Positions 39,144 through 60,009 of a stretch of 60,957 nucleotides of DNA are shown here, one piece after another; position 1 is the stretch's first letter; each line of letters begins with the position of its first letter. The stretch comes from an uncultured virus (IMG/VR IMGVR_UViG_3300042691_048032) (Duplodnaviria; Heunggongvirae; Uroviricota; Caudoviricetes). Below the pieces are notes generated by a model. The model was not told the origin of the DNA, searched no databases, and saw only the letters and a program-made list of their open reading frames with translations. Where the stretch lies: IMG/VR virus record IMGVR_UViG_3300042691_048032. One strand, given 5' to 3'. A program made the translations under genes and the position numbers.

Positions 39144-39617
39144 TTATTTCTTCCCGGAGAGGCGCACCTGGCGGGCGCGCGCGGCGTGCTTGGCCCGCTC
39201 GGGGCGGCGCGCCGGCACGAGGCCCGCCTTGCGGAGGCGCGTGATCCGCGCGTTCACGCCGGCGGTGGTGCGCCCGAGCGACTTGGCGATCTGCCCGGTC
39301 GTCGCGCCCTTCGCCCACATGGCGCAGATGGTCTTCTCCTCGGCGGCCGTCCACTCGCTGTTGGCCTTCTTGCCGCGGCCGCGCGTGGCGGCCTTGGCCT
39401 TGCGCCCGGGCGCGGAGCGGAGGACCGAGTCGATCTCGTCCTGCGTGAGGCCGGCCTCCTCGAGGGCCACGCGGGCCACGTCGCTGATGCGGAGCGGGCT
39501 GCCGCCCGACCGCGCCCAGATGGTGGCCAGCTGTGCGTCGCGGGCCACGGTGAGCAGGGCGCGCACTCGCGCCTGCGGGTCCCCGTTCGGGGTCTTCTTT
39601 GCCTTCGTGTTGTTCAT
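39144..39617 (-). CDS. GcrA/Myb-like HTH DNA-binding protein
   Basis: 'WTAAEEKTICAMWAKGATTGQIAKSLGRTTAGVNARITRL'; GGGAGG RBS. Confidence 0.65.
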   Translation of the reverse strand: MNNTKAKKTPNGDPQARVRALLTVARDAQLATIWARSGGSPLRISDVARVALEEAGLTQDEIDSVLRSAPGRKAKAATRGRGKKANSEWTAAEEKTICAMWAKGATTGQIAKSLGRTTAGVNARITRLRKAGLVPARRPERAKHAARARQVRLSGKK

Positions 39618-39671
39618 GGTGAACCTCCCTGGTTCTGTGTAGTGACGCGTCGTGTGGCGCGTCGTGTGGAG

Positions 39672-39701
39672 AGTGTATGGCCGTCTCCGGCCACGTGTCA
39701 A
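39672..39701 (-). promoter_or_regulatory. SigA-type promoter TTGACA-N18-TACACT
   Basis: Consensus boxes with a palindromic spacer; two CCACACGACGCG repeats follow downstream. Confidence 0.7.
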
Positions 39702-39712
39702 GTATTCCCGGC

Positions 39713-39982
39713 CTAGCGGTCGGCGAGCCACGGCTCGAGGTGCTTGACCGCGATCCCCGTCGCGAGGCTGGCCGCCATGCGGGCCTCGTCGGGGTGCATG
39801 TCCTCGCCGGCGACGAGCCACCGGACGCACTCGCGCACGGTGTCGAACACCTCGGCCCGCTCGTCGATGACCGACCCCGTCAGCGACTCCCAGCGGAGCC
39901 TGACGACGCGCCTCGCGCCGAGGGGGCGGACCTCGACCGAGGCCCGCCTGTCGCCCTCGACGAGGGACTCGTGGAGGATCAC
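39713..39982 (-). CDS. Hypothetical protein
   Basis: GTGA-coupled to the upstream gene. Confidence 0.5.
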   Translation of the reverse strand: MILHESLVEGDRRASVEVRPLGARRVVRLRWESLTGSVIDERAEVFDTVRECVRWLVAGEDMHPDEARMAASLATGIAVKHLEPWLADR

Positions 39983-40551
39983 GCCGGCACCGGCTCGAGG
40001 TCGGCGTCCCACACGGGGAGGACCACGTAGCCGTTGCGGTAGACCGCCACCGCGATCTCGTCGGCGAGGAGCCTCTCGGCACCGCGGACGATCTTCACGG
40101 CCTGCGTCTCCGACCCGACGGAGGCGATCGCCTGTCGGACGACCTCCTCGTCGTCGGCGGCGGCCAGCATCCGCCCGTAGTCGATGACGGTGACGAGGGC
40201 GTCGCGGACGCCGATCAGGCCCGCCATGCGGCCGATCTCCCCGCCGTCGGGGCGGACGACCGTCCAGCGGACGAGGTCCTTCCAGTCCTCGAGGGCGATG
40301 CGGTCGCAGATGCCCTCGTCGTCGTGGCCCTCGTACTGGCCGTGGCACTTCGGGCACTGCGACGGGTTGTCCCAGTCCCAGTGGTTGCCCGACCCGTAGC
40401 ACTTGCGGCACTTGCCCTTCCCCCCGCGGGGGCCGTCGCCGGTCCCGTGGCACGAGGGGCAGGCCCGCCGCGTGGCCACCTCGCCGTGGTTGCAGCTCGT
40501 GCAGTCCTTCTTGCCCAGCGAGAGGGTTCGTGTTTCGGTGTTGATCTTCAT
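39979..40551 (-). CDS. DnaJ-type CxxCxGxG zinc-finger protein
   Basis: Four CxxC(xG) motifs; conserved leader. Confidence 0.7.
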   Translation of the reverse strand: MKINTETRTLSLGKKDCTSCNHGEVATRRACPSCHGTGDGPRGGKGKCRKCYGSGNHWDWDNPSQCPKCHGQYEGHDDEGICDRIALEDWKDLVRWTVVRPDGGEIGRMAGLIGVRDALVTVIDYGRMLAAADDEEVVRQAIASVGSETQAVKIVRGAERLLADEIAVAVYRNGYVVLPVWDADLEPVPA

Positions 40552-40581
40552 GCTGACCTCCTTGGTCGGTTGCTGTCGGTA

Positions 40582-40612
40582 CTAGAACGCTCGGTCGGTG
40601 TCAGAGTGTGCG
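40582..40612 (-). promoter_or_regulatory. Class B motif CGCACAC-N16-CGTTCTAG
   Basis: Exact spacing; upstream of 40551. Confidence 0.8.
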
Positions 40613-40900
40613 CCCGTCCATGCCGAGCGCGTTGGCGGGGAGGGCGATCCCCCGTGCGGCCATGCCGGCCACCTCGTCGTCGTCGAAGTACTCGGCGTCG
40701 TGGAAGTGGCTGTGGCCCGCCTCGCACTCCCACCCGCGGTCGGTGCGGACGATCGGCGCCCCGCACTCGCTGACCAGGTCGCTGGGCGAATCGGGGTACC
40801 ACTCGAAGTCCTCGACCTCGGCGTAGGCCTCCTCGACCCAGCGCGGCGTCCCATGCACCAGCCAGGTGCAGCGATCCTCGTTCCGTTCGGTTCCTTCCAT
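40601..40900 (-). CDS. Hypothetical protein
   Basis: Conserved RBS leader. Confidence 0.7.
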   Translation of the reverse strand: MEGTERNEDRCTWLVHGTPRWVEEAYAEVEDFEWYPDSPSDLVSECGAPIVRTDRGWECEAGHSHFHDAEYFDDDEVAGMAARGIALPANALGMDGRTL

Positions 40901-40929
40901 GTTGACCTCCTTGGTCGTCGTTGCCTTCC

Positions 40930-40965
40930 AAGGTACATAACGGACGAACGCCTGTCAAGTGTGCG
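40930..40965 (-). promoter_or_regulatory. Class B motif nested with TTGACA-N17-TACCTT
   Basis: CGCACAC TTGACA ggcgttcgtc CGTT atg TACCTT. Confidence 0.8.
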
Positions 40966-40978
40966 TGATCGGGAACAG

Positions 40979-41008
40979 TTGACAATCACCGCCCGGCCGC
41001 CGTACGAT
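40979..41008 (+). promoter_or_regulatory. SigA-type promoter TTGACA-N18-TACGAT
   Basis: Divergent from 40965; upstream of 41048. Confidence 0.6.
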
Positions 41009-41047
41009 CGTCGGTGACGGCCCGAGGGGCCGGCAGAGGAGGACAGC

Positions 41048-41377
41048 ATGTTCAGGGAACCGATCCACGACGAGCCCGAGCTCGACCCGCCCGCCGGCAC
41101 GACCTACTGCGAGCACTGCGGGGCGATCGTCCCCGAGGCGTACGCCGACCGGTGGCCCGTCCCGCACGGCGACGGCTGGGAGACCGAGACGGTCTGCCAC
41201 ACGTGCCGCCCGCCCCGCCCGCGCAGGCCCGACGGCTACGTCCTCCACAAGCTCGTCGTCAGCATCTCGACGCCCTGGGACACCGACCCGGACGAGATCG
41301 CCCCGCTCGCGCAGGCCCTCATGGACGCCGTGGGGGAGTCCCCGTTCCACCTCGAGGCCGTCTGGCTCCAGCGGTAG
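41048..41377 (+). CDS. Hypothetical Zn-finger protein
   Basis: GAGGAGG RBS; CEHC..CHTC. Confidence 0.6.
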   Translation: MFREPIHDEPELDPPAGTTYCEHCGAIVPEAYADRWPVPHGDGWETETVCHTCRPPRPRRPDGYVLHKLVVSISTPWDTDPDEIAPLAQALMDAVGESPFHLEAVWLQR

Positions 41378-41390
41378 GGGACAAATCAGA

Positions 41391-41416
41391 AGGCCCGCCA
41401 CATGCGTGACGGGCCT
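41391..41416. terminator. Hairpin between convergent genes
   Basis: aggcccgccac-atgc-gtgacgggcct. Confidence 0.55.
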
Positions 41417-41456
41417 CCCTCAGCGCCGCTCGCGCGGCGCGGTCTTCGTGCGTGAC

Positions 41457-41894
41457 TCACATCCCGAGCGATGCCCGGAGCTGCCAGCGCCACTTCTTGT
41501 GCATGTCGTCGCGCTCGCCCAGGAAGTTGGCGACGCCCTGCTCGTCCTCGTCCATCGCGGCCCGGAGGGCCTTGTTGATCTGCGCGATCACAACGTCGTT
41601 CGCGGCCAGGAGGTCGCGCACCATGTCGGCCGGGGCCGTCGACTCGATCTCGGTCTCCTTCAGGGTCCTGAGCTGGGCGAACTCGATCAGGCGGAACGGC
41701 GAGAAGTCGCCGACCTTCCTGATGTCCTCGGCCAGAGCGTCGATGGATCCGTTCACGTCCTCGTAGATCTCGGCGAACAGCTCGTGGTACTGGGCGAAGT
41801 CGGGGCCGGTGACGTTCCAGTGGAAGCCCTGGAGCCGGTGGTTGAGGGTCACGACGTCCGCGAGCGTGACTTTGAGTTCCTGTGCGAGAGACAT
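41457..41894 (-). CDS. dps: Dps (DNA-binding ferritin-like protein)
   Basis: 'FHWNVTGPDF..YHELF.E.Y..D.LAE.IR..K..W.L'. TACCAT lies 6 nt before the ATG, suggesting a leaderless start. Confidence 0.9.
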   Translation of the reverse strand: MSLAQELKVTLADVVTLNHRLQGFHWNVTGPDFAQYHELFAEIYEDVNGSIDALAEDIRKVGDFSPFRLIEFAQLRTLKETEIESTAPADMVRDLLAANDVVIAQINKALRAAMDEDEQGVANFLGERDDMHKKWRWQLRASLGM

Positions 41895-41956
41895 GCTGCG
41901 ATGGTACACGAAGCGCCGGGTCACGGCGGTCGTGGGGTCGGGCGTGACTCGCCGGC

Positions 41957-42364
41957 TCAGTCGACCGCCAGGCCCAGCCCGGCGAACGCCGCGAGGAGCC
42001 CGTCGGCCTCGGCCGCGCCGACCTCGGCCCGCACGAGGGCCGAGTACCTCGCCCTGAACGGGCGGTCGTGTCCCATCGGCTCGCCGGCGGGGGTCGTCGC
42101 GTGGGCCAACTCGTGGAGGACGAGCCACAGGCAGGCCATCCCGCCGATCGTGATCCTCGAGTCCCGCGGGTTGCAGTGACCGCTCCCGAACCCCCTGCCG
42201 CGCACCACCGCCCAGCCCGGGGCGTGGCGGTCGACGACCTCCTGCGCCTCGGCCACGGTCACCTGTCGGCGGGCGGGGTGCTCGACGGGTATGCCCGCCC
42301 AGTACTCCCGCTCCGCCTCGTAGGTCTTGTTGGCGTAACGCTGGCGCACCGCGGCCCGCCTCAC
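41957..42364 (-). CDS. SprT-like zinc metallopeptidase
   Basis: VLHELAH...GHD..F. Confidence 0.6.
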   Translation of the reverse strand: MRRAAVRQRYANKTYEAEREYWAGIPVEHPARRQVTVAEAQEVVDRHAPGWAVVRGRGFGSGHCNPRDSRITIGGMACLWLVLHELAHATTPAGEPMGHDRPFRARYSALVRAEVGAAEADGLLAAFAGLGLAVD

Positions 42365-42525
42365 CGGCCCTCCTCGTCCCGCACCTCCACGATGTCCCAG
42401 CCCTCGTGCCTCATCGCCCAGTGGACACTGTTGCCCTGGATGCGCAGGAGTTGCTCGAACGCCTTGTCGTAGGTGTCGTGGAGGCTCTTGGTGTCCCCGT
42501 CCCGCTTCACGGCCCAGCGACTCAT
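42361..42525 (-). CDS. Hypothetical protein
   Basis: ATGA/GTGA coupled. Confidence 0.5.
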   Translation of the reverse strand: MSRWAVKRDGDTKSLHDTYDKAFEQLLRIQGNSVHWAMRHEGWDIVEVRDEEGR

Positions 42526-42905
42526 GCCGGCACCTTGCCCGCGGCGACGGAGAAGCAGACGTCGGCGAGGGAGTCGCAGTAGACCCCCGATGCCTCGGTG
42601 GCGACGACGACCTCGCCCAGGGTGTTGCCCTTGCTCACGAGGCGGACGAGGCGGACGCTGTAGGTGTCGTCCCAGTCCAGCACGACCTCGACGGCCTTGC
42701 CCCGCCCCGCGAAGAGGAGCGCACCGACGTAGTACGAGCCGTCCTCGTCCTCTGCTTGGATCGGCATCCACTTGCCGCCGCACAGGGCGAGGGTGTTGAT
42801 GACACCGATCTGGTGGATGATGACCTTCGGGTCGCAGGCGCGACCGCTCCGGTCGAAGGCTCGCTCGAGGGCGATCCTCGCTTCTGTGTTGGTGAGTTTG
42901 CTCAT
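42522..42905 (-). CDS. Hypothetical protein
   Basis: Conserved RBS leader; TTGACC-N17-CATCAT promoter at 42939-42967. Confidence 0.7.
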   Translation of the reverse strand: MSKLTNTEARIALERAFDRSGRACDPKVIIHQIGVINTLALCGGKWMPIQAEDEDGSYYVGALLFAGRGKAVEVVLDWDDTYSVRLVRLVSKGNTLGEVVVATEASGVYCDSLADVCFSVAAGKVPA

Positions 42906-42990
42906 GTTGACCTCCTTGGTCGTTTCTTGTTGACAATGATGATGGCACAACGGTGCGGCGAGGTCAAGCCCCGCCACACCGCCGGCCCGT

Positions 42991-43209
42991 TCAGAGCAGT
43001 TCCTCGCTGATTCCGGCCCAGCCGTCGGCGAGCTCGTTCTTGTACGAGTCCCACACCCGCAGGACGCGGACGTCCATGTCCCGCTGCCCGTCGTCCGTCC
43101 TCGTCTGAGGCTCCACGACCTGGGTGACGCAGGCGACGATGATGTCGTCCACCTCGTCGGCGGTGAGTTCCCTGTCCGTCTCGAACACGATGCTGATCTT
43201 GTGCTTCAT
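42991..43209 (-). CDS. Hypothetical protein (paralog of 56279..56458)
   Basis: Conserved leader; F.TDR.LT.DEVD..I....QV.EP. Confidence 0.7.
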   Translation of the reverse strand: MKHKISIVFETDRELTADEVDDIIVACVTQVVEPQTRTDDGQRDMDVRVLRVWDSYKNELADGWAGISEELL

Positions 43210-43243
43210 GGCTGACCTCCTTGGTCGGTTGCTGTCTCCTCCA

Positions 43244-43280
43244 CTAGAACGAACGGTGCGCACGGGAGTGTGCGCACCGT
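43244..43280 (-). promoter_or_regulatory. Class B motif within hairpin
   Basis: acggtgcgcac-actccc-gtgcgcaccgt followed by TCGTTCTAG. Confidence 0.8.
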
Positions 43281-43304
43281 CCGTCAGACTCCTCCCCGTC
43301 CCCG

Positions 43305-43694
43305 TCAGCAGACCTCCCCGATCTGCACGAGGAACTCGGCGAGGACGTCGGCGGGGTCGTACTCGTACGAGGGGAACGCCCTCTTGGCCACTGCCACGAA
43401 CTCGTCCAGCAGTTCCTTGCGATCGCCGGCGTACCAATAGGTGTTCGGCCCGCCCCAGCCGTCGTTCATGAACTCGAGGATGGCCACGCCGTCCTTGTAG
43501 ATGACCCCCTCGAACTCGGAGCCGTCCAGGGTGTTCTCCTCCCGCGTGATCGTCGCCGCGTAGGCGGACACGAGTGCGATGTCGGTGGGGACGCAGGTGT
43601 GCGCCCCGTCCTCGGCGCACCACTCGTAGGGGCAAGCCTCCACGATCTTGGCGGTGAGTTCTCGGGTCGGGCTGGTGATCTTCTTCGTCTTCAT
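43305..43694 (-). CDS. Hypothetical protein (paralog of 43774..44175)
   Basis: Conserved leader; EG.IYK....IL...NDG.GG. Confidence 0.7.
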   Translation of the reverse strand: MKTKKITSPTRELTAKIVEACPYEWCAEDGAHTCVPTDIALVSAYAATITREENTLDGSEFEGVIYKDGVAILEFMNDGWGGPNTYWYAGDRKELLDEFVAVAKRAFPSYEYDPADVLAEFLVQIGEVC

Positions 43695-43728
43695 GGGCGA
43701 CCTCCTTGGTCTGTCGTCGTCGGTTGTG

Positions 43729-43765
43729 GAACGAACGGTGCGGGCCGATGTGTGCGGCCCGCACC
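43729..43765 (-). promoter_or_regulatory. Class B motif within hairpin
   Basis: ggtgcgggccg-cacacat-cggcccgcacc followed by GTTCGTTC. Confidence 0.8.
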
Positions 43766-43773
43766 GAACCCGC

Positions 43774-44175
43774 TCACGAGTAGTTGGCGATTGCGTCGAG
43801 GAAACTGACGGCCCGACCGTCGTTCTCCCACTCCTTGTCGGGGTAGGCGAGGTTGGCCGCCCGCACGAACTCCTCGTGGAGCCTCTGCCACTCGCGGTTG
43901 TCCTCGTAGGTCGCCTCCGAGGACGGGTGGAAGGCGAGACACCCTCCGTTGCCCTCGTCCTCCACGGCGAGGATCGGTCGGTCGCCCTTGTAGAGCGTCC
44001 CCTCCCAATAGATCCCGCTGTAGTGCTCGTGTTCGGAGCCGATCTCGAACGAGTACTCGGCGATGTGCTCCACGTGCGTGGGTGCGCACCAGTGCTCGCC
44101 TGCGGCTCGCATCGCGTCGGCGTGTGCCTTCGTCGGGCGGATTCTCGTGTTCTTCTTCTTGCTCTTCGTTGCCAT
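43774..44175 (-). CDS. Hypothetical protein (paralog of 43305..43694)
   Basis: Conserved leader; EG.LYK....IL...DEG.GG. Confidence 0.7.
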   Translation of the reverse strand: MATKSKKKNTRIRPTKAHADAMRAAGEHWCAPTHVEHIAEYSFEIGSEHEHYSGIYWEGTLYKGDRPILAVEDEGNGGCLAFHPSSEATYEDNREWQRLHEEFVRAANLAYPDKEWENDGRAVSFLDAIANYS

Positions 44176-44205
44176 GTTGACCTCCTTGGTCAGTTGCTGT
44201 TGGTA

Positions 44206-44246
44206 CTAGAACGCTCGGTGTCGGTCGGAGTGTGCGCACCCCGACC
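44206..44246 (-). promoter_or_regulatory. Class B motif within hairpin
   Basis: ggtcggggtg-cgca-cactccgacc; N16; CGTTCTAG. Confidence 0.8.
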
Positions 44247-44248
44247 CG

Positions 44249-44545
44249 TCAGCAGACGAGTCCGTTCAGCATCGCCTTGCCGACGACGGGGAAGTCCCCG
44301 TCCCCTTGGGCGAAGAAGACGTCGAACCCGTCCTCGGCGCACCGTGCGAGGGCCGCGAGTCGGAGCAGGGCGAGGGAGAGGGAGTCGTAGTACTCCTCCC
44401 ACTCGTTGACGACACCGTCGTTCCAGCGGAGTGCGATCGTCCCCTTGCCGTTCTCGTCGACGACGGCCGTGATCGTCGCCGACGGGTGGTCCGGGGCGAA
44501 CTTGATCTCGCTGCTGAATACCTTCTTGTCCTGTGCTGTCTTCAT
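44249..44545 (-). CDS. Hypothetical protein (MKTAQ start)
   Basis: Conserved RBS leader. Confidence 0.7.
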   Translation of the reverse strand: MKTAQDKKVFSSEIKFAPDHPSATITAVVDENGKGTIALRWNDGVVNEWEEYYDSLSLALLRLAALARCAEDGFDVFFAQGDGDFPVVGKAMLNGLVC

Positions 44546-44642
44546 GGTGACCTCCTTGGTCTGTCGTTGTTGTCCCGATGGTGACACGGGGGTGTGGCAC
44601 GGTTCCCCGCACCACGCCCCCGTGGGGGTCAGCCCGTGGGGG

Positions 44643-44846
44643 TCAGTTGTCGTAGTCCGCCCAGATGGCCCCGACCGACTCGAGCCAGTTGCGGGCGGAC
44701 TCGTAGGAGTCGAACCCCGTCGCCTGCTCGGGCCAGCCCTCGCCGCGGATGAGGATGACCTTCCACTGCCCGATCGCCTCGTGGAAGCGGTAGACGGGCT
44801 TGGTGCTGATTTTCTGCTGTGCCTTGCTTTCCTGTGCTGTCTTCAT
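44643..44846 (-). CDS. Hypothetical protein (MKTAQ start)
   Basis: Conserved leader. Confidence 0.7.
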   Translation of the reverse strand: MKTAQESKAQQKISTKPVYRFHEAIGQWKVILIRGEGWPEQATGFDSYESARNWLESVGAIWADYDN

Positions 44847-44876
44847 GGTGACCTCCTTGGTCGGTTGCTGTTGGTA

Positions 44877-44907
44877 CTAGAACGAACGGTGTTGATCGGA
44901 GTGTGCG
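44877..44907 (-). promoter_or_regulatory. Class B motif CGCACAC-N16-CGTTCTAG
   Basis: Exact spacing. Confidence 0.8.
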
Positions 44908-44926
44908 GCCCGAACCGGCGATCCCC

Positions 44927-45142: not shown

Positions 45143-45171
45143 GCTGACCCCCTTGGTCGTTGTTCTCTGTC

Positions 45172-45207: not shown

Positions 45208-45224
45208 CCTTCGTCAGAAGATAC

Positions 45225-45253
45225 TTGACTCAGCCACACCCCTATGTCACAAT
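45225..45253 (+). promoter_or_regulatory. Class A promoter TTGACT-cagccacacccctatgt-CACAAT
   Basis: 17-nt spacer with the conserved GCCACACCC core and a TGn extended -10. Confidence 0.7.
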
Positions 45254-45270
45254 GATCTTTGTCAAGGGAA

Positions 45271-45301
45271 CGCACACTCCTCGGGGGAGCGTTCGTTCTA
45301 G
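45271..45301 (+). promoter_or_regulatory. Class B motif CGCACAC-N16-CGTTCTAG
   Basis: Exact spacing. Confidence 0.8.
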
Positions 45302-45331
45302 GGGTACAACCGAGTGACCAAGGAGGTCAGC

Positions 45332-45715: not shown

Positions 45716-45720
45716 TCCGC

Positions 45721-45765
45721 CGAGCGGTGCGGGCCGCACACTTTGGCCCGCACCGCTCGTTCTAT
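45721..45765 (+). promoter_or_regulatory. Class B motif within 15-bp hairpin
   Basis: cgagcggtgcgggcc-gcacacttt-ggcccgcaccgctcg followed by TTCTATT. Confidence 0.85.
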
Positions 45766-45796
45766 TACCAACGACGACAGACCAAGGAGGTCACCC

Positions 45797-45979: not shown

Positions 45980-46006
45980 CGCACACTTCGGCATCGTGCG
46001 TTCGTT
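45980..46006 (+). promoter_or_regulatory. Class B motif CGCACAC-N16-CGTT
   Basis: Exact spacing. Confidence 0.75.
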
Positions 46007-46037
46007 ACAGAGACAGACACAGACCAAGGAGGTCAGC

Positions 46038-49421: not shown

Positions 49422-49457
49422 GTTGACCTCCTTGGTCGTTTGTCGTTGTTGTTGTCA

Positions 49458-49486
49458 ATGGTATCCGAGTATCGGATGTCTGTCAA
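49458..49486 (-). promoter_or_regulatory. SigA-type promoter TTGACA-N17-TACCAT
   Basis: Consensus boxes upstream of the AAA gene. Confidence 0.75.
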
Positions 49487-49762: not shown

Positions 49763-49795
49763 GTTGACCTCCTTGGTCGTTTGTCGTTGTTGGTA

Positions 49796-49830
49796 ATAGA
49801 ACGGACGGTGCGCACGGAAGTGTGCGCGCC
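49796..49830 (-). promoter_or_regulatory. Class B motif within hairpin
   Basis: CGCACAC-N16-CGTTCTAT. Confidence 0.8.
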
Positions 49831-50295: not shown

Positions 50296-50330
50296 GTTGA
50301 CCTCCCTGGTCGTTGTCGTTGTTGATGCCT

Positions 50331-50370
50331 GAACGAACGCTCGGGGCCGAGGTGTGCGCACCCCGACCCC
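50331..50370 (-). promoter_or_regulatory. Class B motif within hairpin
   Basis: ggggtcggggtg-cgca-cacctcggcccc; CGTTC at N16. Confidence 0.8.
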
Positions 50371-50807: not shown

Positions 50808-50839
50808 GTTGACCTCCTTGGTCGTTTGTCGTTGTACCT

Positions 50840-50870
50840 CTAGAACGAACGACGCACTCGAAAGTGTGCG
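50840..50870 (-). promoter_or_regulatory. Class B motif CGCACAC-N16-CGTTCTAG
   Basis: Exact spacing. Confidence 0.8.
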
Positions 50871-50956: not shown

Positions 50957-50985
50957 ATTATGAACTACGGGTGTGACATAGTCAA
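50957..50985 (-). promoter_or_regulatory. Class A promoter TTGACT-N17-CATAAT
   Basis: Spacer atgtcacacccgtagtt. Confidence 0.65.
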
Positions 50986-51011: not shown

Positions 51012-51047
51012 CGCACACTTGACACCGTTGCCGTCGTTCCCTACGAT
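51012..51047 (+). promoter_or_regulatory. Class B motif nested with TTGACA-N17-TACGAT
   Basis: CGCACAC TTGACA ccgttgccgt CGTT ccc TACGAT. Confidence 0.8.
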
Positions 51048-51076
51048 GTAAGGCAACAACGACCAAGGAGGTCAGC

Positions 51077-51704: not shown

Positions 51705-51928
51705 GCGCGCCGACCACGGGGGTCGACGGGGCCACCGCCGAACTCCTCCACAACGTGGACAGGATGTTCGCCGCCATCGAGGCGGCAGCGTCCCGGCTCG
51801 TCGCCGAGATCGACGGCATCATCGCCGCAACGGTCGGCCACGAGCTGTTGTCCGCCGCCGAGGTGGCCGACATGATGCTCGACCTCCGGTCGACGGCATC
51901 GGCCATCGCACAGGCGGCGCAGGCTTGA
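51701..51928 (+). CDS. Hypothetical protein
   Basis: ATGA-coupled. Confidence 0.5.
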   Translation: MSAPTTGVDGATAELLHNVDRMFAAIEAAASRLVAEIDGIIAATVGHELLSAAEVADMMLDLRSTASAIAQAAQA

Positions 51929-51961
51929 CGGGCGGGCCACGGGGGTCGTAGCATCGCCCCC

Positions 51962-52980: not shown

Positions 52981-53047
52981 AGTTGTGACCTCCTCGGTCG
53001 TAGTAGTTGTAAGAATGTTTCAGGGTAGCGGTATTCGGCCACCCCTG

Positions 53048-53652: not shown

Positions 53653-53708
53653 GTTGACCTCCTCGGTCGTTCGTTGTTGATGTCGGTTGTTCGTCGTGGC
53701 CCGTGCGA

Positions 53709-54133: not shown

Positions 54134-54163
54134 GTTGACCTCCTTGGTCGGTTGCTCGTACTC

Positions 54164-54194
54164 CTAGAACGAACGACGCCCACCGAAGTGTGCG
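54164..54194 (-). promoter_or_regulatory. Class B motif CGCACAC-N16-CGTTCTAG
   Basis: Exact spacing. Confidence 0.8.
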
Positions 54195-54211
54195 GGATCC
54201 GTACCGATCAC

Positions 54212-54240
54212 ATCTTGACACATACTCGGGGGCGAGTCAA
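54212..54240 (-). promoter_or_regulatory. Class A promoter TTGACT-N17-CAAGAT
   Basis: TGT extended -10. Confidence 0.6.
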
Positions 54241-54258
54241 GTGGTGATCGTGATCCGT

Positions 54259-54287
54259 TTGACCGTGCGCGGTACGGGCGTTACGAT
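54259..54287 (+). promoter_or_regulatory. SigA-type promoter TTGACC-N17-TACGAT (leaderless start of SNF2 gene)
   Basis: The -10 box ends 6 nt before GTG 54294. Confidence 0.7.
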
Positions 54288-54293
54288 CGTGCC

Positions 54294-56258
54294 GTGCCGC
54301 GCATCGTCCAGTCGGGCGGGAGCCAACTTCTCCTGGCCGACGATCACCTCGTCCTCGACTTCCCCTACGACGCCGATCAGGTCGCCCGGGTGAAGGCCAT
54401 CCACGGGGCCAGGTGGGACAAGGTCGCCCGGGTCTGGCGGGTCCCGGTCGAGAGCATCGCCGAGGCCCGCTCCTTCGCCCGTGACTGCTCCTTCTGGGTC
54501 GCCCCGGAGGTGCTGCGCTTCGACCTGCCGGCCCCGCTCGCCGGCGGAGTCACGGCGGGCCGCAAGCGGCTCCGGCTCGACTCCGGGAGGCTGCTGATCG
54601 AGTTCGGCTACGACCAGCTGATCGCGGAGGCGGCCCGGAAGACGCCGGGCGTGGCCTGGGACAAGCGGGCCAAGGTGTTCGCGGCCCCGGAGTCGGCGGC
54701 GGCCGACGTCGTCTCGATGTGCTCCCGGTTCGGTTTCGACATCGACCCGGCGGCCCGCGAGCTCGCCGAGGCGGAGTCACGCAGGGGGGAGGAGTCCGTC
54801 GCCGCGTCCCGTGCGCTCGACGCCGACCTCGACGTCGCCGGCCTCGGCGGGACGCTCCGGGGTTTCCAGCGGGCCGGGGTGAAGTACCTCCTCGACTCCC
54901 GGCGGGCCTTCCTGGCGGACGACATGGGCACCGGGAAGACGATCCAGTCGCTCGTGGCCCTCGAGGCCGCCTCACAGCGGGGCGTGACCGCGTGGCCGGC
55001 CGTCGTCGTCTGCCCGGCGACCCTGGTGCTGAACTGGCCCCGGGAACTCGAGCGGTGGCTGCCCGGGAAGACCTGGCGCGTCGTCCAGGGCCGCAAGGAT
55101 CCCGGCGACCTCTCCGGGGTCGACCTCGTGGTCGTCGGGTGGCCGAACCTGTCGAGCCACGTCGAGGCCCTCTCCGGGTTCTCGAGTTACGTCTTCGACG
55201 AGAGTCACGCCGCGAAGAACTACGAGGCCGCCCGGACCAAGGCCGCCATCCGGGTCGCCCGGAACGCCCCGGGCCTCGTCCTGTGCCTCACCGGGACGCC
55301 GATCACGAACCGGCCCGCCGAGTACGCCTCCCAGCTCGAGATCCTCGGCCGCATCGGCGACTTCGGGGGCCGGTGGGCGTTCTACAAGCGGTACTGCAAC
55401 GCGTTCCGTGACCGCTGGGGGCAGTGGCACCTCGAGGGCGCCGCGAACCTCCCGGAACTCAACCAGAAGCTCCGGGCGAGCTGCTACGTGCGCCGCACGA
55501 AGGACGAGGTGATGCCGGAGCTCGACCCGGTCGAGACGGCCGTGCGGCTCGTCCCCCCGGACCCGAAGGTGATGCTCGAGTACCGCAAGGCCGAGGAGGA
55601 CATCGTCGAGTACGCCGCGAACAGGGCCGCCGAGATCGCGAGGGAGCTGGGCAAGCCCGCGGGTCACGCCGCCGTCCGGGCGCGCTTCGCCGCTGAGTCG
55701 AACGAGCACCTCGTTCGCACCGCGGCCCTGCGCCGGCTCGCCGCCCGGTCGAAGATGCCGGCCGTCGAGGAGATGGTCGAGGAGATGCTCGAGTCCGGGC
55801 GCAAGGTCGTCCTCGCGGCGCACCACCGGGACGTCGTCGACGACCTGGCGTCGAGGTTCGGCGGCCTGAAGATCCAAGGCCAGATGTCCCCGGAGGAGGT
55901 CGAGCGGGCCAAGCGTGACTTCCAGGAACTCCCCGTCGACAAGGCCCCGGTGATCGTCCTGTCGATCATGGCGGCCAAGGAGGGGCACACGCTGACGGCG
56001 TCCCAGGACGTGATCTTCGTCGAGGAGCCGTGGACGCCGACGGACGTCGACCAGGTCGTCGCCCGGTGCCACCGCATGGGGCAGGCGGGATCAGTCACGG
56101 CGTGGCACGTCCTCGCGTCGGGGACGATCGACGAGGCGGTCCACGGGCTCGTCGAGAGGAAGCGCGGCGTGGTCCGGGCGGCCACGGACGGCGAGGATCC
56201 CGCGGTCCAGGCGGGTTCGGTCGTCTCCGACCTACTGCTCGGGATGCTCGGCGGCTGA
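54294..56258 (+). CDS. SNF2-family helicase with two HARP-like N-terminal domains
   Basis: LADDMGTGKT, DESH, LTGTP..N and Q..ARCHRMGQ; duplicated 'F.YD.....K...G..WDK..'. Confidence 0.9.
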   Translation: MPRIVQSGGSQLLLADDHLVLDFPYDADQVARVKAIHGARWDKVARVWRVPVESIAEARSFARDCSFWVAPEVLRFDLPAPLAGGVTAGRKRLRLDSGRLLIEFGYDQLIAEAARKTPGVAWDKRAKVFAAPESAAADVVSMCSRFGFDIDPAARELAEAESRRGEESVAASRALDADLDVAGLGGTLRGFQRAGVKYLLDSRRAFLADDMGTGKTIQSLVALEAASQRGVTAWPAVVVCPATLVLNWPRELERWLPGKTWRVVQGRKDPGDLSGVDLVVVGWPNLSSHVEALSGFSSYVFDESHAAKNYEAARTKAAIRVARNAPGLVLCLTGTPITNRPAEYASQLEILGRIGDFGGRWAFYKRYCNAFRDRWGQWHLEGAANLPELNQKLRASCYVRRTKDEVMPELDPVETAVRLVPPDPKVMLEYRKAEEDIVEYAANRAAEIARELGKPAGHAAVRARFAAESNEHLVRTAALRRLAARSKMPAVEEMVEEMLESGRKVVLAAHHRDVVDDLASRFGGLKIQGQMSPEEVERAKRDFQELPVDKAPVIVLSIMAAKEGHTLTASQDVIFVEEPWTPTDVDQVVARCHRMGQAGSVTAWHVLASGTIDEAVHGLVERKRGVVRAATDGEDPAVQAGSVVSDLLLGMLGG

Positions 56259-56278
56259 TCCCCGCCGGTCGCCGGCGA

Positions 56279-56458
56279 TCACGACTCGTGGACGATGTCG
56301 ATCCCGCTCGTCGTGTAGGTCGCGTCGACGTACTCGTTGCCGTCGTCGACCTGAGGCTCCTCCACCTGTGCGAACAGCGTGGTGATCAGCGAGTCGACCT
56401 CGTCGTCGGTGAGCGGTCGGTCGGTGGTGAACGTGATGGTGATCGTGTTGGTTGTCAT
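56279..56458 (-). CDS. Hypothetical protein (paralog of 42991..43209)
   Basis: Leader variant GCCCAAGGAGGTCA. Confidence 0.65.
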   Translation of the reverse strand: MTTNTITITFTTDRPLTDDEVDSLITTLFAQVEEPQVDDGNEYVDATYTTSGIDIVHES

Positions 56459-56523
56459 GGTGACCTCCTTGGGCCGTTTGTCGTTGTCGTCGTCGTGATG
56501 TTCGGTTGGGGGTGGCGTGGCGG

Positions 56524-56844
56524 TCACACCGCCCCGACACCCTCGTGGATCTCGCGGCAGAGTCCCCACGGACCTCCCTCGGTCTCGTAGATCCCGAAGA
56601 TCGCGATCGCATCCCCGAACCGCTTGAGCAGTTCGCCGTAGTAGTCGCCGAGCGCATCACGATCCTCCTGCGGGAGGGACTCCAGCACCCCGATCGCATA
56701 CCTCAGTTCGTCGGGGGTCTCCTCGACCTCCTCGTCGGTGTACCACCCCGACATGTCGTCGGTCATGGCGATCATCTGGAACACGGTCTCGTCCTCGTTG
56801 AGCCTGTCCAACACCTCGTAGTGCTTCTTCATCTTCTCGTCCAT
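56524..56844 (-). CDS. Hypothetical acidic protein
   Basis: Leader AACCGAGGAGGTCA. Confidence 0.65.
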   Translation of the reverse strand: MDEKMKKHYEVLDRLNEDETVFQMIAMTDDMSGWYTDEEVEETPDELRYAIGVLESLPQEDRDALGDYYGELLKRFGDAIAIFGIYETEGGPWGLCREIHEGVGAV

Positions 56845-56878
56845 GCTGACCTCCTCGGTTCGTTTACTTGACAGACTC

Positions 56879-56907
56879 ATCTTGACACAGGGGTGTAGCA
56901 GAGTCAA
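56879..56907 (-). promoter_or_regulatory. Class A promoter TTGACT-ctgctacacccctgtgt-CAAGAT
   Basis: 17-nt conserved spacer. Confidence 0.7.
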
Positions 56908-56929
56908 GTATTGGGGGAGGGGCGGGGTG

Positions 56930-56958
56930 CGCACACTTGCCCGCCGTCCGATCGTTCT
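56930..56958 (+). promoter_or_regulatory. Class B motif CGCACAC-N16-CGTTCT
   Basis: Exact spacing. Confidence 0.8.
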
Positions 56959-56989
56959 GATGGCAACGACTACGACCAAGGAGGTCACC

Positions 56990-57172
56990 ATGACAACGAA
57001 CACCGCCAGCAAGACCGAACGAGAGATCGACCGCCTAGAGGAACTCCTGGACAGCGGGCGGCTCCGCGAGATGTTCCTGAACCCCGACGAGGGTCCGGCC
57101 TTCGCGTTCGGGTACCTGAAGGCGGCGATCGCCAACCTGATCCGGGTACACCGGGTCGAGAACGGGGACTGA
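56990..57172 (+). CDS. Hypothetical protein
   Basis: Conserved leader. Confidence 0.65.
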   Translation: MTTNTASKTEREIDRLEELLDSGRLREMFLNPDEGPAFAFGYLKAAIANLIRVHRVENGD

Positions 57173-57255
57173 GCCCCCCCGCATGCGTGACCCTCCCCGC
57201 AGGTGCGGGGCCGCGCGGTCACGCCATCAGCAAAGGTCGGGCGTGACCGCCGGCC

Positions 57256-57558
57256 TCACCCCCCGCCGTCCAGCTCGGGGTCGTGCCAGCGCCAGGTCCC
57301 GTCTCTCTCCAGGACGATCCCGGTCGGCGGGCGGCACTCGGCCAGGTGGAACGGATCGCCGGCCCTGCTCCACGTGAAGTCTCGGTTCACGACGACGGGG
57401 CAGGCGGGTCGACCGTCGTCGTACGCCCTGTCCACGATCCATCGCCCGATGATGACCGTCCCCAGCACGAGGGACGACCAGAAGGTGAACCTCACCGCCG
57501 TCCTGACCGTGTAGTAGATCGGCGGATGCCACCCGCCGCGTGTGTTCCTCTGTCCCAT
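57256..57558 (-). CDS. Membrane-anchored hypothetical protein
   Basis: AAGGAGGTCA leader; one TM segment. Confidence 0.6.
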   Translation of the reverse strand: MGQRNTRGGWHPPIYYTVRTAVRFTFWSSLVLGTVIIGRWIVDRAYDDGRPACPVVVNRDFTWSRAGDPFHLAECRPPTGIVLERDGTWRWHDPELDGGG

Positions 57559-57615
57559 GTCTGACCTCCTTGTAGTCGTCGTGGGATCAGTAGACCGAAA
57601 CGCGGTTGGAATGTC

Positions 57616-57650
57616 AAGGACCCCCGACGGTATTCCCGTCGGGGGTCCTT
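57616..57650. terminator. 15-bp hairpin terminator
   Basis: aaggacccccgacgg-tattc-ccgtcgggggtcctt. Confidence 0.7.
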
Positions 57651-57673
57651 TGTCGTCTCGGTGTCGGGTTCGT

Positions 57674-57862
57674 TCAGTCGACCGTCTTCCATCGGTCGTA
57701 CGCATCGGCGACGCAGTCGTCGCAGAACAACTCACCCTCGTCGTTGAGCGTCGGTTCGCTCTCGCCCTCAGCGAACAACTCCTCGCACTCCATACACCGC
57801 CAGCACGTGCAGTAGTCGACGGGGTCTTCGCAGATGTCGCAGGTTTCCTTGGTTTCCGTCAT
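57674..57862 (-). CDS. Cys-rich Zn-finger protein
   Basis: Conserved leader; multiple CxxC. Confidence 0.7.
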   Translation of the reverse strand: MTETKETCDICEDPVDYCTCWRCMECEELFAEGESEPTLNDEGELFCDDCVADAYDRWKTVD

Positions 57863-57904
57863 GGTGACCTCCTTGGTCTGTGTCTTTGTTTCCTTGACAT
57901 CACA

Positions 57905-57933
57905 AGTATGACATAGGGGTGTGGCGGAGTCAA
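57905..57933 (-). promoter_or_regulatory. Class A promoter TTGACT-ccgccacacccctatgt-CATACT
   Basis: 17-nt conserved spacer; GTCAAG downstream. Confidence 0.75.
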
Positions 57934-57999
57934 GGGTGAAGTAGTGCGGTCCAGATGGTGGTGGTAGTGGTGCCAATACCCCGGCGGGATCGCACACCC

Positions 58000-58509
58000 C
58001 TACCCGCGGCCGAAGACCGCCGGCCCAGCGGGGCCACGCCGACCGCGGACGACCCTCTCCACCCGGCGGGCGGCTCGGTCGACCGGCTCGTGCTCCCAGA
58101 CCACCACGACAGCCCAGCCGTCACGGCGGAGTTCCCTGACGGTTCTGGAGTCACGCCGCCTGTTGCCGGCCATCTTCTCCCTCCACCATTCGGTGTGCGT
58201 GACTGCGGGTCTGGAGTGCTCCTCGCACCCGTGCCAGTAGCACCCGCGGACGTCGACGACCACCCTCTGCCGGGGGAAGACGATGTCGTGGGTCCGCCGG
58301 TTGTCGAGGATCTTGCGGTGGACGCGGAACCTCAGGCCCCGTCGGTGGAGCTCGGACCTCAGGGCGACCTCGGGGGCGGTGTCCCTCGTCCTCTGCGACC
58401 TCATCCTGTCCCTCACCGCCGGCGACGAGGCGGGCGGCGGTGGCGGGAGAACGGAACGGGGCGACCCTCCTCGGGCCGCCCCGTCTGCTCGCGGTTCCGT
58501 CGCCGTCAT
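58000..58509 (-). CDS. vsr: Vsr (very short patch repair)-like endonuclease
   Basis: 'RM...R.RDT.PEVALR..LH..GLRFR..DIVF..V.V.GCYWHGC..WW..K...N..RD..GW.V..VWEH'. Confidence 0.85.
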   Translation of the reverse strand: MTATEPRADGAARGGSPRSVLPPPPPASSPAVRDRMRSQRTRDTAPEVALRSELHRRGLRFRVHRKILDNRRTHDIVFPRQRVVVDVRGCYWHGCEEHSRPAVTHTEWWREKMAGNRRRDSRTVRELRRDGWAVVVVWEHEPVDRAARRVERVVRGRRGPAGPAVFGRG

Positions 58510-59120
58510 GCGGCGACCTCCCCCCACTTCGCCTCCATGTCGTCCTCGGCCTCGTCGAGTTCCCTCATCCACGACCACTCCCACTCCTCCAACTTCCGTT
58601 CCCACTCCTCGTCCTCGGACGAGAAGTCCTGCTCGGGGATCTCCACGCCGCGGTCCTCCAGGAGTTCGCCGCCCCTGTGGGCGGTGACCCCCGAGAAGCC
58701 CCACCCCTCGTCCACGTATCGGGTGACGAAGAGGAGCGTCGGGAAGAGTGCCGAGACCTTGGCGAGTAGTTCGCTCGCCGGCCCCCACGCCGAGAGGTAG
58801 ATGGCGGTCGTGGAGTGCTCGTCGTTCGACGTGACCTCGCCGTCGTAGTCGCCCCACTTCGTCCCCCACTCGGCGTTGGCCCAGTCGTACCAGTTGGCGT
58901 AGCCGTACTCGGCGAGGTTCGATGCGTGTTGCTCGGCGTACTCCTTGGCCTTCTCGGGATCCGACGTGAAGCCCGAGAACGAACCCTTGAGTCCCTCGGG
59001 CATGGGGTGGAACACGGAGAGGCTGAACCTGCCGTCCTCGTCCTTGGCCGAGTCCACGAAGCGGTCTCGCTCGTCCTTCGGGCCTGTGATGATCGTTGTC
59101 TGTTCGCAATGGTTGGGCAT
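58506..59120 (-). CDS. DUF1281/YubB-like ferredoxin-fold protein
   Basis: MPNHC..WYDW..WGTKW..SAWGP..FP.L; conserved leader. Confidence 0.7.
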   Translation of the reverse strand: MPNHCEQTTIITGPKDERDRFVDSAKDEDGRFSLSVFHPMPEGLKGSFSGFTSDPEKAKEYAEQHASNLAEYGYANWYDWANAEWGTKWGDYDGEVTSNDEHSTTAIYLSAWGPASELLAKVSALFPTLLFVTRYVDEGWGFSGVTAHRGGELLEDRGVEIPEQDFSSEDEEWERKLEEWEWSWMRELDEAEDDMEAKWGEVAA

Positions 59121-59156
59121 GGGTGACCTCCTTGGTCGTTGTGTTGTTGTTGTTGT

Positions 59157-59195
59157 TGGAACGAACGGGGCGGGTCGCGTCGTGCGACCCGCCCC
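59157..59195 (-). promoter_or_regulatory. Class B variant (CGCACGA-N16-CGTT) within 12-bp hairpin
   Basis: ggggcgggtcgc-acgac-gcgacccgcccc followed by GTTCGTTCC. Confidence 0.7.
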
Positions 59196-59201
59196 CTCCC
59201 G

Positions 59202-59654
59202 TCACTTCGCCGAGGCGTTGATCTTCGGGACGACCGACTCGGTGAAGAACATCGTCTTGCCGTTGGGCTTGCCGTCCTTGCCGACCTCCAACGCAACGAT
59301 GGGGAACTTCTGACGGCTCGCCGCGATGCCTGCGAAGATGTAGTTCTTCGGGGCGGACGAACCCTTCACGGCGGTGCTGAACGCCGTGCCGAGGGGTGCG
59401 GTGAGCGACACCGTCGCCCCGCCGACGTGGTAGACGGTGTACCCGAAGCGGGTGTAGTAGATCGCCTCGGGCGACTTGATGTTCACGCCCGACGCGTCCT
59501 TCTCCTCGACGCTGGTCTCCACGACGAGCTTGTAGATGTCGCCGTACGAGGTCTTGATCTTCGGTGCGGCGAGTCCGTTCTCGGCGAGGATCTTCTCCAC
59601 CGCCGATCGGATCTCGTTGGTGATCTTGAGTGCCTGTTCCTTGGTTACTTCCAT
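59202..59654 (-). CDS. Hypothetical protein
   Basis: Leader GACCGAGGAGGTCAACATG. Confidence 0.7.
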   Translation of the reverse strand: MEVTKEQALKITNEIRSAVEKILAENGLAAPKIKTSYGDIYKLVVETSVEEKDASGVNIKSPEAIYYTRFGYTVYHVGGATVSLTAPLGTAFSTAVKGSSAPKNYIFAGIAASRQKFPIVALEVGKDGKPNGKTMFFTESVVPKINASAK

Positions 59655-59688
59655 GTTGACCTCCTCGGTCGTCGTTGTTGACAAGTAG

Positions 59689-59718
59689 ATACTGACATAG
59701 GGGCGTGGTGTCTGTCAA
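59689..59718 (-). promoter_or_regulatory. Class A promoter TTGACA-gacaccacgcccctatgt-CAGTAT
   Basis: 18-nt spacer with the conserved core. Confidence 0.6.
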
Positions 59719-59745
59719 GTATTTCTTTCCACCTCGAAGAATGAC

Positions 59746-59774
59746 TTGACTCCGCCACACCCGTGTGTCATACT
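59746..59774 (+). promoter_or_regulatory. Class A promoter TTGACT-ccgccacacccgtgtgt-CATACT
   Basis: 17-nt conserved spacer; GTCAAG downstream. Confidence 0.75.
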
Positions 59775-59808
59775 GAGTGTGTCAAGGAGACAGACCAAGG
59801 AGGTCAGC

Positions 59809-60009
59809 ATGAGCAAGACACGGAACACCAGCCATTGCCATTGGTGCGGGACGGATCTTCGGTACGCCGAGGAGATCGCCACGAGGGACTACGGCAACGC
59901 CGTCATCGCCCTCTGCCCCGACCGCTGTGAGGCGGACCACGACCACGAGGAGCACCTCAAGCGTTGGGCCGCCGAGCTTGAGGAGGAGGAACGGGCGGTG
60001 GCGAAGTGA
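59809..60009 (+). CDS. Zn-finger hypothetical protein
   Basis: Conserved leader; CHWC..CP..C. Confidence 0.65.
   Translation: MSKTRNTSHCHWCGTDLRYAEEIATRDYGNAVIALCPDRCEADHDHEEHLKRWAAELEEEERAVAK

Follow-up and report, generated by a model that had tools for sequence, protein, structure and literature searches.

Two described systems come closest to the repeated gene heads that we report here from IMG/VR record IMGVR_UViG_3300042691_048032, a 60,957-nt stretch of DNA from an uncultured virus of the Caudoviricetes (hereafter the window), in which 29 small genes share a modular leader that ends in a 14-nt motif, or a variant of it, a few nt before the start codon. The first is the start-associated sequence (SAS), described together with an extended form (ESAS) in Cluster K mycobacteriophages (PMC3203893) and, as an SAS-like motif, in Cluster EF Microbacterium phages (PMC7302621). 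According to the SAS passages of the Cluster K paper, there are 11-19 copies per genome, located 3-7 nt from the start codon, with ATG preferred and the consensus GGGATAGGAGCCC, and imperfect 17-bp inverted repeats, the ESAS, accompany about half of the sites (PMC3203893). The corresponding passages of both the 2011 and the 2020 paper state that the function of the SAS is unknown (PMC3203893, PMC7302621). The second system comprises the PeSL cassettes, the promoter-early stem-loop heads of T4-type phages, as presented in passages of two further papers (PMC2839356, PMC4122927).

The leaders of the window bear a likeness to both, as the original prediction for this DNA had proposed: the 3' end of the head resembles the SAS, and the head as a whole resembles the T4 PeSL. 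To our knowledge, T4-type phages are the only ones for which shuffling through PeSLs has been demonstrated. We consider it likely that the heads of the window are the standard expression head of 29 early genes (58-238 amino acids) and double as homology for cassette exchange, and the region they occupy (39.6-60 kb) is probably a hyperplastic accessory-gene region that is expressed early. Each head would consist, in this order, of one or both of two promoter-like modules, an A/C tract, the 14-mer and ATG, and would ensure that each cargo gene is transcribed and translated strongly and independently of its context.

The 14-nt start motif and the genes behind it

Scanning the window with the pattern GACCRAGGAGGTCA, that is GACC(A/G)AGGAGGTCA, at one mismatch or fewer returned 27 matches (22 exact and five with one mismatch; 21 on the minus and six on the plus strand), as compared to 0.12 expected from 100 shuffles. 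All of them fall within 40554-59806 and none in 1-40553, in agreement with the earlier claim that the structural half has no such leader. An ATG follows every match, after 2 nt at 22 sites, 3 nt at four and 5 nt at one, and opens an open reading frame (ORF) of 58-238 amino acids. We found no orphan or antisense copies, an ORF following all 27 copies of the window and all 24 copies of its relative G002. The consensus of the 14-mer, GACCAAGGAGGTCA, contains an 8-nt Shine-Dalgarno sequence (SD), AAGGAGGU, which is, judged by its letters, a strong one. The 14 nt directly 5' of the motif form a G-poor A/C tract (A 44%, C 30%, G 19%, T 7%). The original prediction had counted about 29 small genes with a conserved modular leader; 27 of these 29 starts carry the 14-mer, and the other two, 57558 and 39617, carry the variants CTACAAGGAGGTCA and GAACCAGGGAGGTTCA, respectively. 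The features are as follows (pattern and ORF scans unless another basis is given).

39615..60009, both strands: probable hyperplastic accessory-gene region with all 29 leader-headed genes (motif and ORF scans, comparison with G002)
39620..39635, minus: variant SD motif GAACCAGGGAGGTTCA with 5-bp arms, ATG at 39617 (repeat family D3, fold)
40554..40567, minus: 14-mer, gene 39979-40551
40903..40916, minus: 14-mer, gene 40601-40900
42908..42921, minus: 14-mer, gene 42522-42905
43213..43226, minus: 14-mer, gene 42991-43209
43698..43711, minus: 14-mer (1 mismatch), gene 43305-43694
44178..44191, minus: 14-mer, gene 43774-44175
44548..44561, minus: 14-mer, gene 44249-44545
44849..44862, minus: 14-mer, gene 44643-44846
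45145..45158, minus: 14-mer (1 mismatch), gene 44927-45142
45316..45329, plus: 14-mer, gene 45332-45715
45780..45793, plus: 14-mer, gene 45797-45973
46022..46035, plus: 14-mer, gene 46038-46313
49424..49437, minus: 14-mer, AAA_5 ATPase gene 48705-49421 (also family scan)
49765..49778, minus: 14-mer, gene 49490-49762
50298..50311, minus: 14-mer (1 mismatch), gene 49837-50295
50810..50823, minus: 14-mer, gene 50379-50807
51061..51074, plus: 14-mer, gene 51077-51313
52986..52999, minus: 14-mer, gene 52600-52980
53655..53668, minus: 14-mer, gene 53248-53652
54136..54149, minus: 14-mer, gene 53912-54133
56461..56474, minus: 14-mer (1 mismatch), gene 56279-56458
56847..56860, minus: 14-mer (1 mismatch), gene 56524-56844
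56974..56987, plus: 14-mer, gene 56990-57172
57562..57575, minus: variant CTACAAGGAGGTCA, gene 57283-57558 (variant scan, comparison with G002)
57865..57878, minus: 14-mer, gene 57674-57862
59124..59137, minus: 14-mer, gene 58506-59120, DUF1281_C (also family scan)
59657..59670, minus: 14-mer, gene 59202-59654
59793..59806, plus: 14-mer, gene 59809-60009

The motif is conserved in three lineages, and its occurrence is real and statistically solid. G002 is a viral contig of 130,481 nt (57% GC, 88% complete according to CheckV) that is syntenic with the whole window: positions 1-60957 correspond to about 45.8-114.5 kb of G002, with 65-90% identity for many of the larger conserved proteins. Identical copies of the 14-mer number 24 in G002 (23 of them at 92.4-114.3 kb of its 130 kb), 21 in G003 and six in G004, and the motif is also repeated in a third lineage, L091 and L094 (66-67% GC), whose AAA_5 protein is 76-78% identical to that of the window. 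Its letters have thus stayed the same between lineages as different in GC as 57% and 67%. In 14 orthologous leader pairs of the window and G002, identity is 0.91 over the 14-mer, all 14 positions of which are conserved, as against 0.31 over the 50 nt upstream, and by our reading of the alignment the promoter class differs in about eight of the 14 pairs. Within IMG/VR, the 19-nt pattern is present in multiple copies only in contigs of this phage group. Relaxed forms such as CCAAGGAGGTCA and GCCAAGGAGGCA are found in L061 (76% identity). In relatives of 47-49% GC (L080, L063), early-type genes are headed by (C)CTACTACTAAC-AAGGAG-N-ATG with a (CTA)n tract poor in G; within the same phage group this is a separate private leader word, and it lacks the GACC..GGTC flanks. 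G002 itself has a second SD form, aGCCCCAAGGAGGCC(A/G), that replaces GACCAAGGAGGTCA at five neighboring minus-strand genes, one of which is replaced in G003 by a GACC-form gene:

93576, 93946, 95129, 95771 and 96057 of G002, minus: genes with the aGCCCCAAGGAGGCC form (loci L051, L029-L031)

Synteny with the 130-kb G002 means that the window is part of a larger myovirus-like genome, and from the sequence we infer an uncultured phage of the ~130-kb class with an actinobacterial host. The left 39 kb of the window encode tail and baseplate proteins, a collagen-repeat fibre, lysis enzymes, WhiB, DUF732 proteins and a primase-helicase; the host phylum is proposed because of the presence of WhiB and DUF732. 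The nearest cultured phages, those of Arthrobacter, Gordonia and Microbacterium, reach at most 37% amino acid identity in baseplate J and the primase/helicase, and megablast of 39600-46100 against 50,697 phage records gave no match. A search for tRNA genes found none. Among 24 public runs listed, 20 contain the sequence, across ten studies labelled as freshwater, lake water, aquatic or fungus metagenomes; one RNA run contained 5% of the sampled words. Scanning 185,579 cellular genomes with the 19-nt pattern gave single copies per record among the matches listed (80 of at least 120 stretches), hence no multi-copy cellular use among them and no clue to the host. A text search of the literature returned no match for the 14-mer or a 12-mer of it, and the listed papers that contain an 11-mer concern unrelated topics.

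The cargo had been described as mostly small acidic or Zn-finger unknowns, typical of genes for host takeover or anti-defence, a role that it may have. Small and acidic it is, 22 of the 29 products having an isoelectric point below 5.5; two or more CxxC pairs, in contrast, are present in only three of the 29. Two pairs of the genes are paralogous. Matches to Pfam (above cut-off) or PHROG families were obtained for four of the motif genes scanned, namely 44927 and 46038 (PHROGs of unknown function), 48705 (AAA_5) and 58506 (DUF1281_C), and the variant-headed gene 39144-39617 matches a helix-turn-helix (HTH) regulator PHROG.

Beyond the 14-mer, the leaders of both strands fall into families of repeats 35-83 nt in length. 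The description of some leaders as near-identical holds for a few pairs, for example 43687-43766/45725-45804 (80 nt, 90%), 44521-44572/44822-44873 (52 nt, 88%) and 40898-40965/45140-45207 (68 nt, 85%), and not for the family at large, most copies of which are only 60-85% alike. In three genes, the first six codons (MKTAQ[D/E]) are also part of the repeat. When the opposite strand is read, the 14-mer and its A/C tract resemble a weak terminator, TGACCTCCTTGGTCG followed by a T/G-rich run; such plus-strand readings occur at 42908-42922 and seven other sites, and opposite-strand motif readings account for 11 of 22 terminator-like predictions; these calls are probably an artefact of the scan.

Promoter-like modules and folding of the leaders

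Two kinds of promoter-like module are enriched upstream of the motif, which upholds the proposed architecture of a promoter motif with or without a hairpin. Sigma-70-type sites number 10 in 40000-59999, compared to 1.3 in shuffles. The form that we call type A, TTGACT-N17-CAnnAT, often has TG before the second hexamer and a CACACCC spacer (TTGACT-N3-CACACCC..TGT-CAnnAT) with TGTCAAGG downstream, and its consensus is common to the window (five sites) and G002 (nine sites). It would be a sigma-70/SigA promoter with an extended -10. The type B module, GCACAC-N16-CGTTMTA, has 15 sites at two or fewer mismatches, all at 40.5-57 kb, where 1.29 were expected; its rigid spacing (GCACAC-N16-CGTTCTA) suggests a second promoter class. 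With 15 modules for 29 starts, type B is a two-box element with an optional hairpin, unlike paired 17-bp repeats. Below, type B comes from the module scan, rows with a hairpin z also from the fold scan, and the other rows from the promoter scan unless stated otherwise.

40583..40611, minus: type B, GCACAC-N16-CGTTMTA
40936..40964, minus: type B (1 mismatch)
43245..43273, minus: type B, strong hairpin, z -6.4
43727..43755, minus: type B, strong hairpin, z -5.9
44207..44235, minus: type B, hairpin, z -2.3
44878..44906, minus: type B
45272..45300, plus: type B, 3' of the putative type A promoter
45736..45764, plus: type B, strong hairpin, z -5.3
45981..46009, plus: type B (1 mismatch)
49797..49825, minus: type B, strong hairpin, z -4.5
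50329..50357, minus: type B (2 mismatches), hairpin, z -2.1
50841..50869, minus: type B, hairpin, z -2.1
51013..51041, plus: type B (2 mismatches), overlapping TTGACA-N17-TACGAT (also promoter scan)
54165..54193, minus: type B
56931..56959, plus: type B (1 mismatch)
40979..41008, plus: sigma-70-type, TTGACA-18-TACGAT
42939..42967, minus: sigma-70-type, TTGACC-17-CATCAT with TG
45225..45253, plus: type A, TTGACT-17-CACAAT with TG and CACACCC spacer (also consensus)
49458..49486, minus: sigma-70-type, TTGACA-17-TACCAT
50957..50985, minus: type A, TTGACT-17-CATAAT (also consensus)
51925..51954, plus: sigma-70-type, TTGACG-18-TAGCAT
54259..54287, plus: sigma-70-type, before the SNF2 helicase gene, which has no 14-mer (also family scan)
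56879..56907, minus: type A, TTGACT..CACCCC..TGTCAAGAT (consensus)
57905..57933, minus: type A, TTGACT-17-CATACT with TG (also consensus)
59746..59774, plus: type A, TTGACT-17-CATACT with TG (also consensus)

No AT-rich tract upstream of the -35 box was found in the window leaders examined. Hairpins overlie type B in 11 of 24 copies (z < -1.5), with the conserved box either in the stem or in the loop, and by our reading of the gene map, six of the eight window copies that lie right after a co-directional gene have one. This placement fits a terminator or insulator role by analogy with the PeSLs, and the predicted GC hairpin probably insulates one cassette from the next.

It is rather unlikely, in our estimate, that GCACAC-N16-CGTTCTA is no promoter but an RNA element of the 5' untranslated region (UTR) or an intrinsic terminator composed of the hairpin and GUUCGUUCU. 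Such an element would account for the stable hairpins in 11 of the 24 copies, for the one copy flagged as terminator-like (45721-45759) and for a -10-like part that fits TAnnnT poorly. It would not account for the 13 of 24 copies that have no significant hairpin, for the varying register of the hairpin or for the rigid spacing of two boxes around a variable spacer, and the T-tract is not longer in the 57%-GC relative. Rfam offered no family above any gathering score, its three matches being at chance level. Moreover, type B lies upstream of type A at G002 101411 and downstream of it at window 45272, and because this order varies we read type B as a second promoter class rather than a UTR element.

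The translation initiation regions (TIRs) of the motif genes (-35 to +25) are weakly folded, with a mean minimum free energy (MFE) of -7.6 kcal/mol, whereas 24 further gene starts in the window average -17.0 (p 9e-9) and random windows -19.4 kcal/mol; the G-poor A/C tract would be what keeps the leader unstructured. Only one structure is predicted in most leaders, a 4-bp stem within the motif itself, GACC:GGUC, that closes an AAGGA loop at about -5.2 kcal/mol. This stem is present in the MFE structure of 23 of the 27 leaders at a mean pair probability of 0.78, and the arms take several complementary forms with the 5-nt loop kept: GACC/GGUC, GAACC/GGUUC at 39617 and GCC/GGC in relatives. An SD mini-hairpin is therefore a possible structure that the folding model partly supports.

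Several points weigh against this structure. The variant (G)CCCCAAGGAGGCC (the CCCC..CC form), which occurs at five places in G002 and in 12 of 199 tabulated TIRs, folds no better than shuffles (z -0.28), and other TIRs (CCAC.., CAAC..) are without complementary arms. Covariation of the arms is thus mixed, and we limit the structural claim to saying that the hairpin can form. The flanks may instead pair with host 16S rRNA; GACC, and the C after GGU, would mismatch the usual actinobacterial 16S 3' end. The invariant flanks of the SD would either insulate or present it, or mark the class for one trans-acting factor.

That the flanks do nothing at all, with GACC and TCA persisting through head copying (concerted evolution) and only a strong SD at optimal spacing being selected, we regard as unlikely. 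Cassette exchange at the heads is indeed seen (below), the SD variant moves with the coding sequence (CDS) in one replacement, and distant relatives use AAGGAG after (CTA)n without GACC..GGTC. Copying should homogenise whole leaders, though, and whole leaders are not homogenised, as the values of 0.31 directly upstream and 0.91 at all 14 positions show in spite of the difference in GC (57% versus 67%); in addition, the arm variants stay complementary in three forms.

Rearrangements at the gene heads

Gene content and order are not invariant among relatives, the opposite of what the original prediction had named as speaking against it. Compared to G002, 11 of the 29 motif genes have no homologue and six are moved or strand-switched (43305, 44927, 45332, 57283, 58506 and 59202), with the backbone gene order kept. 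The segment at 42.9-46.0 kb reads as an inversion between opposite-facing heads.

Junctions could be followed at the nucleotide level in G002, G003, G004 and L159, and they agree with the earlier proposal that leaders mediate gene gain, loss and shuffling. G004 is without G002 95134-96034, the crossover lying inside a shared AGCCCCAAGGAGGCCAA, so that the promoter of one head now precedes the coding sequence that belonged to another. L159 carries one additional gene in an insertion of 256 nt, which is composed of a 14-mer, a small CDS rich in Cys, a type B module and an A/C tract and has ATGACCAAGGAGGTC at either boundary. In both of these indels, the two ends fall within the SD 14-mer. G002 and G003 differ by a CDS that is swapped for unrelated sequence from ATG to stop, the leader being the same as far as the start codon; a second replacement has its breakpoint in the A/C tract, and the SD variant consequently travels with the CDS. 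One G004 gene has a swapped N-terminus, and an L094 gene has a head and new first codons where its L091 homologue is headless, inverted and translationally coupled. Among close relatives of the sister lineage we delimited 16 divergent or indel blocks with 32 boundaries. Eight of the 32 lie within 25 nt of a motif ATG compared to 4.8% expected (p 1e-4), an approximately 5-fold enrichment, and five of the 16 blocks have a boundary at a motif ATG (p 0.013).

Other observations count against heads that serve for both expression and exchange. The remaining 24 of the 32 boundaries lie elsewhere than at motif starts, a 665-689-nt indel of G003 is flanked by a 24-nt repeat that is not part of a leader, and viable rearrangements are expected in intergenic DNA regardless. 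The nucleotide-level junctions all come from the sister clade and none from the near relatives of the window; of the latter, G001 and L089 show no cassette difference and, being 99.3-99.99% identical to the window, are uninformative on cassette content. Metagenome contigs of four runs mapped on 40000-59999 gave no trustworthy joints, with sides of 20-27 nt. Early timing, the promoter activity of both modules and the terminator activity of the hairpins are read from sequence, and the 88% completeness of G002 means that recombinases or regulators missing from it are not proof.

Two side observations belong here. The insertion of G003 (L054, 3034-3698, versus G002 109521-109544) encodes an ORF of about 200-235 amino acids, and its flanking 24-nt direct repeat, TAGCGCCTGAAnnGCCAGTCACGC, represents the last codons (..RDW[H/R]FRR*) of neighboring genes. 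The contigs on 40000-59999 have lengths of 0.6-2.9 kb, and heads are frequent end points; their depth peaks at 45336-46002, where the coding sequence contains an acidic repeat of low complexity, the tail of gene 45332-45715 (DEDYEDYEDDEDDE, 45640-45715), with contig depth up to 329 compared to about 20 elsewhere.

If the motif were purely regulatory, its coincidence with junctions would merely reflect selection for intergenic breakpoints. That the motifs are discrete conserved boxes under purifying selection sits well with this explanation, as do the 24 boundaries away from motif starts and the indel with a non-leader repeat. We nonetheless consider it improbable: two indels with both ends in a 14-18-nt SD motif are not predicted by a preference for intergenic DNA alone, the enrichment at motif starts is roughly 5-fold, and in orthologous genes one and the same 14-mer is joined to different promoter modules. 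An integron-type system, in which the motif would be the site of a circle-excising site-specific recombinase, is most improbable: the same short site does bound cassettes on both sides, but the crossover point varies (inside the SD, the A/C tract, ATG or stop), and tyrosine and serine recombinases were found neither in G002 (PF00589, PF00239; RecT and RecA were likewise not found there) nor among the 80 window proteins scanned.

We therefore return to heads that serve both expression and exchange. Because they are repeated on both strands, the heads would serve as short recombination homology; deletions, insertions, CDS replacements, promoter swaps and inversions with junctions in the heads are seen in relatives, and no site-specific recombinase would take part. 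A further step, possible although on balance doubtful, is that the SD mini-hairpin is at once a class-wide translational operator or insulator, which one phage or host factor would read or which would simply shield the SD from the cargo gene behind it, and the preferred crossover site for an in-register trade of single genes between related phages.

Neighboring genes and comparison with known systems

The window contains three candidate regulators: 46420-46941 (plus), with a helicase-associated domain and a sigma-70 region-4 HTH, a WhiB-like protein at 34353-34628 (plus) and a protein with a LexA-type DNA-binding domain at 29966-30622 (minus). Profile searches of G002 found no sigma region 2 (Sigma70_r2), and neither RegB nor RegA, the latter being weak negatives since the controls also gave no match. 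In the structural half, 15043-19572 (plus) encodes a 1509-aa fibre with nine collagen triple-helix stretches and a phage tail collar domain, and 3' of gene 19586-20287 lie genes for a 2OG-Fe(II) oxygenase and a family-2 glycosyltransferase (20271-20993, 21016-21834); the two enzymes might be a hydroxylase and a glycosylase dedicated to a collagen-like fibre. At the ferritin/Dps-like gene 41457-42128, G001 (99.8% identical) is without about 75 nt at 41654-41728, between two CTCGG repeats, which would be an in-frame loss of 25 codons; the segment is kept in L089.

In integron arrays, as here, the cassettes are small, depend on a promoter and lie between copies of a short site. The window differs from them in that no integrase was found in the proteins scanned and no attC-like structure is present, and in that its cassettes lie on both strands, have their own putative promoters and vary in their junctions.

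With the SAS of Clusters K and EF, as the SAS passages describe it, the 14-mer has much more in common. Both are short, asymmetric, many-copy motifs confined to non-structural genes; both lie a few nt before the start, at the position of the ribosome-binding site, with ATG preferred, and seem to combine an SD core with extra conserved positions. The outer parts are symmetric in both (GGG..CCC in the SAS, GACC..GGTC in the 14-mer), about half of the copies may be tied to a second upstream element, and the genes that follow belong to unrelated families. The sequences differ, with GGGATAGGAGCCC and GGGAAAGGACCCC in those clusters compared to GACCAAGGAGGTCA here. The 14-mer is longer and has more copies (27-29 versus 10-19), the phage is unrelated and much larger, and the upstream partner is a rigid two-box module instead of 17-bp inverted repeats. 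Indel junctions inside the motif are seen here, and the SAS passages make no mention of them.

The PeSL, to the extent that the PeSL passages cover it, shares with this head a sigma-70-like promoter, a stem-loop whose register varies, an SD and a start codon. Both kinds of head cluster in hyperplastic regions, where they precede ORFans, and both mark insertions, deletions and replacements between close relatives, for which homologous recombination between heads is proposed. The PeSL belongs to another host phylum and phage lineage, and here GC is high and the window has no AT-rich upstream tract. Unlike the PeSL, this head has a second, non-sigma-70 module, an SD part that is invariant over 14 nt and crossovers in that SD part. 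Mini-circles and promoter and terminator activity have been shown for PeSLs, and the heads of the window are known from their sequence.

This phage lineage thus combines an SAS-like start motif with PeSL-like shuffling, and it indicates that a ribosome-site motif of only 14-18 nt can be the crossover point for the gain or loss of single genes. The modelled mini-hairpin that presents the SD offers a concrete hypothesis for the conserved flanks. If such heads are general, they would account for the ability of phages to express small accessory genes from a large pool that changes fast, and they would provide a rule for delimiting these cassettes in metagenomic phage genomes. Should the mini-hairpin indeed act both as translational operator and as crossover site, a newly acquired ORF would be expressed at once, SAS would generally act as plug-and-play junctions for the accessory-gene pools of phages, and the motifs of Clusters K and EF would gain a function.

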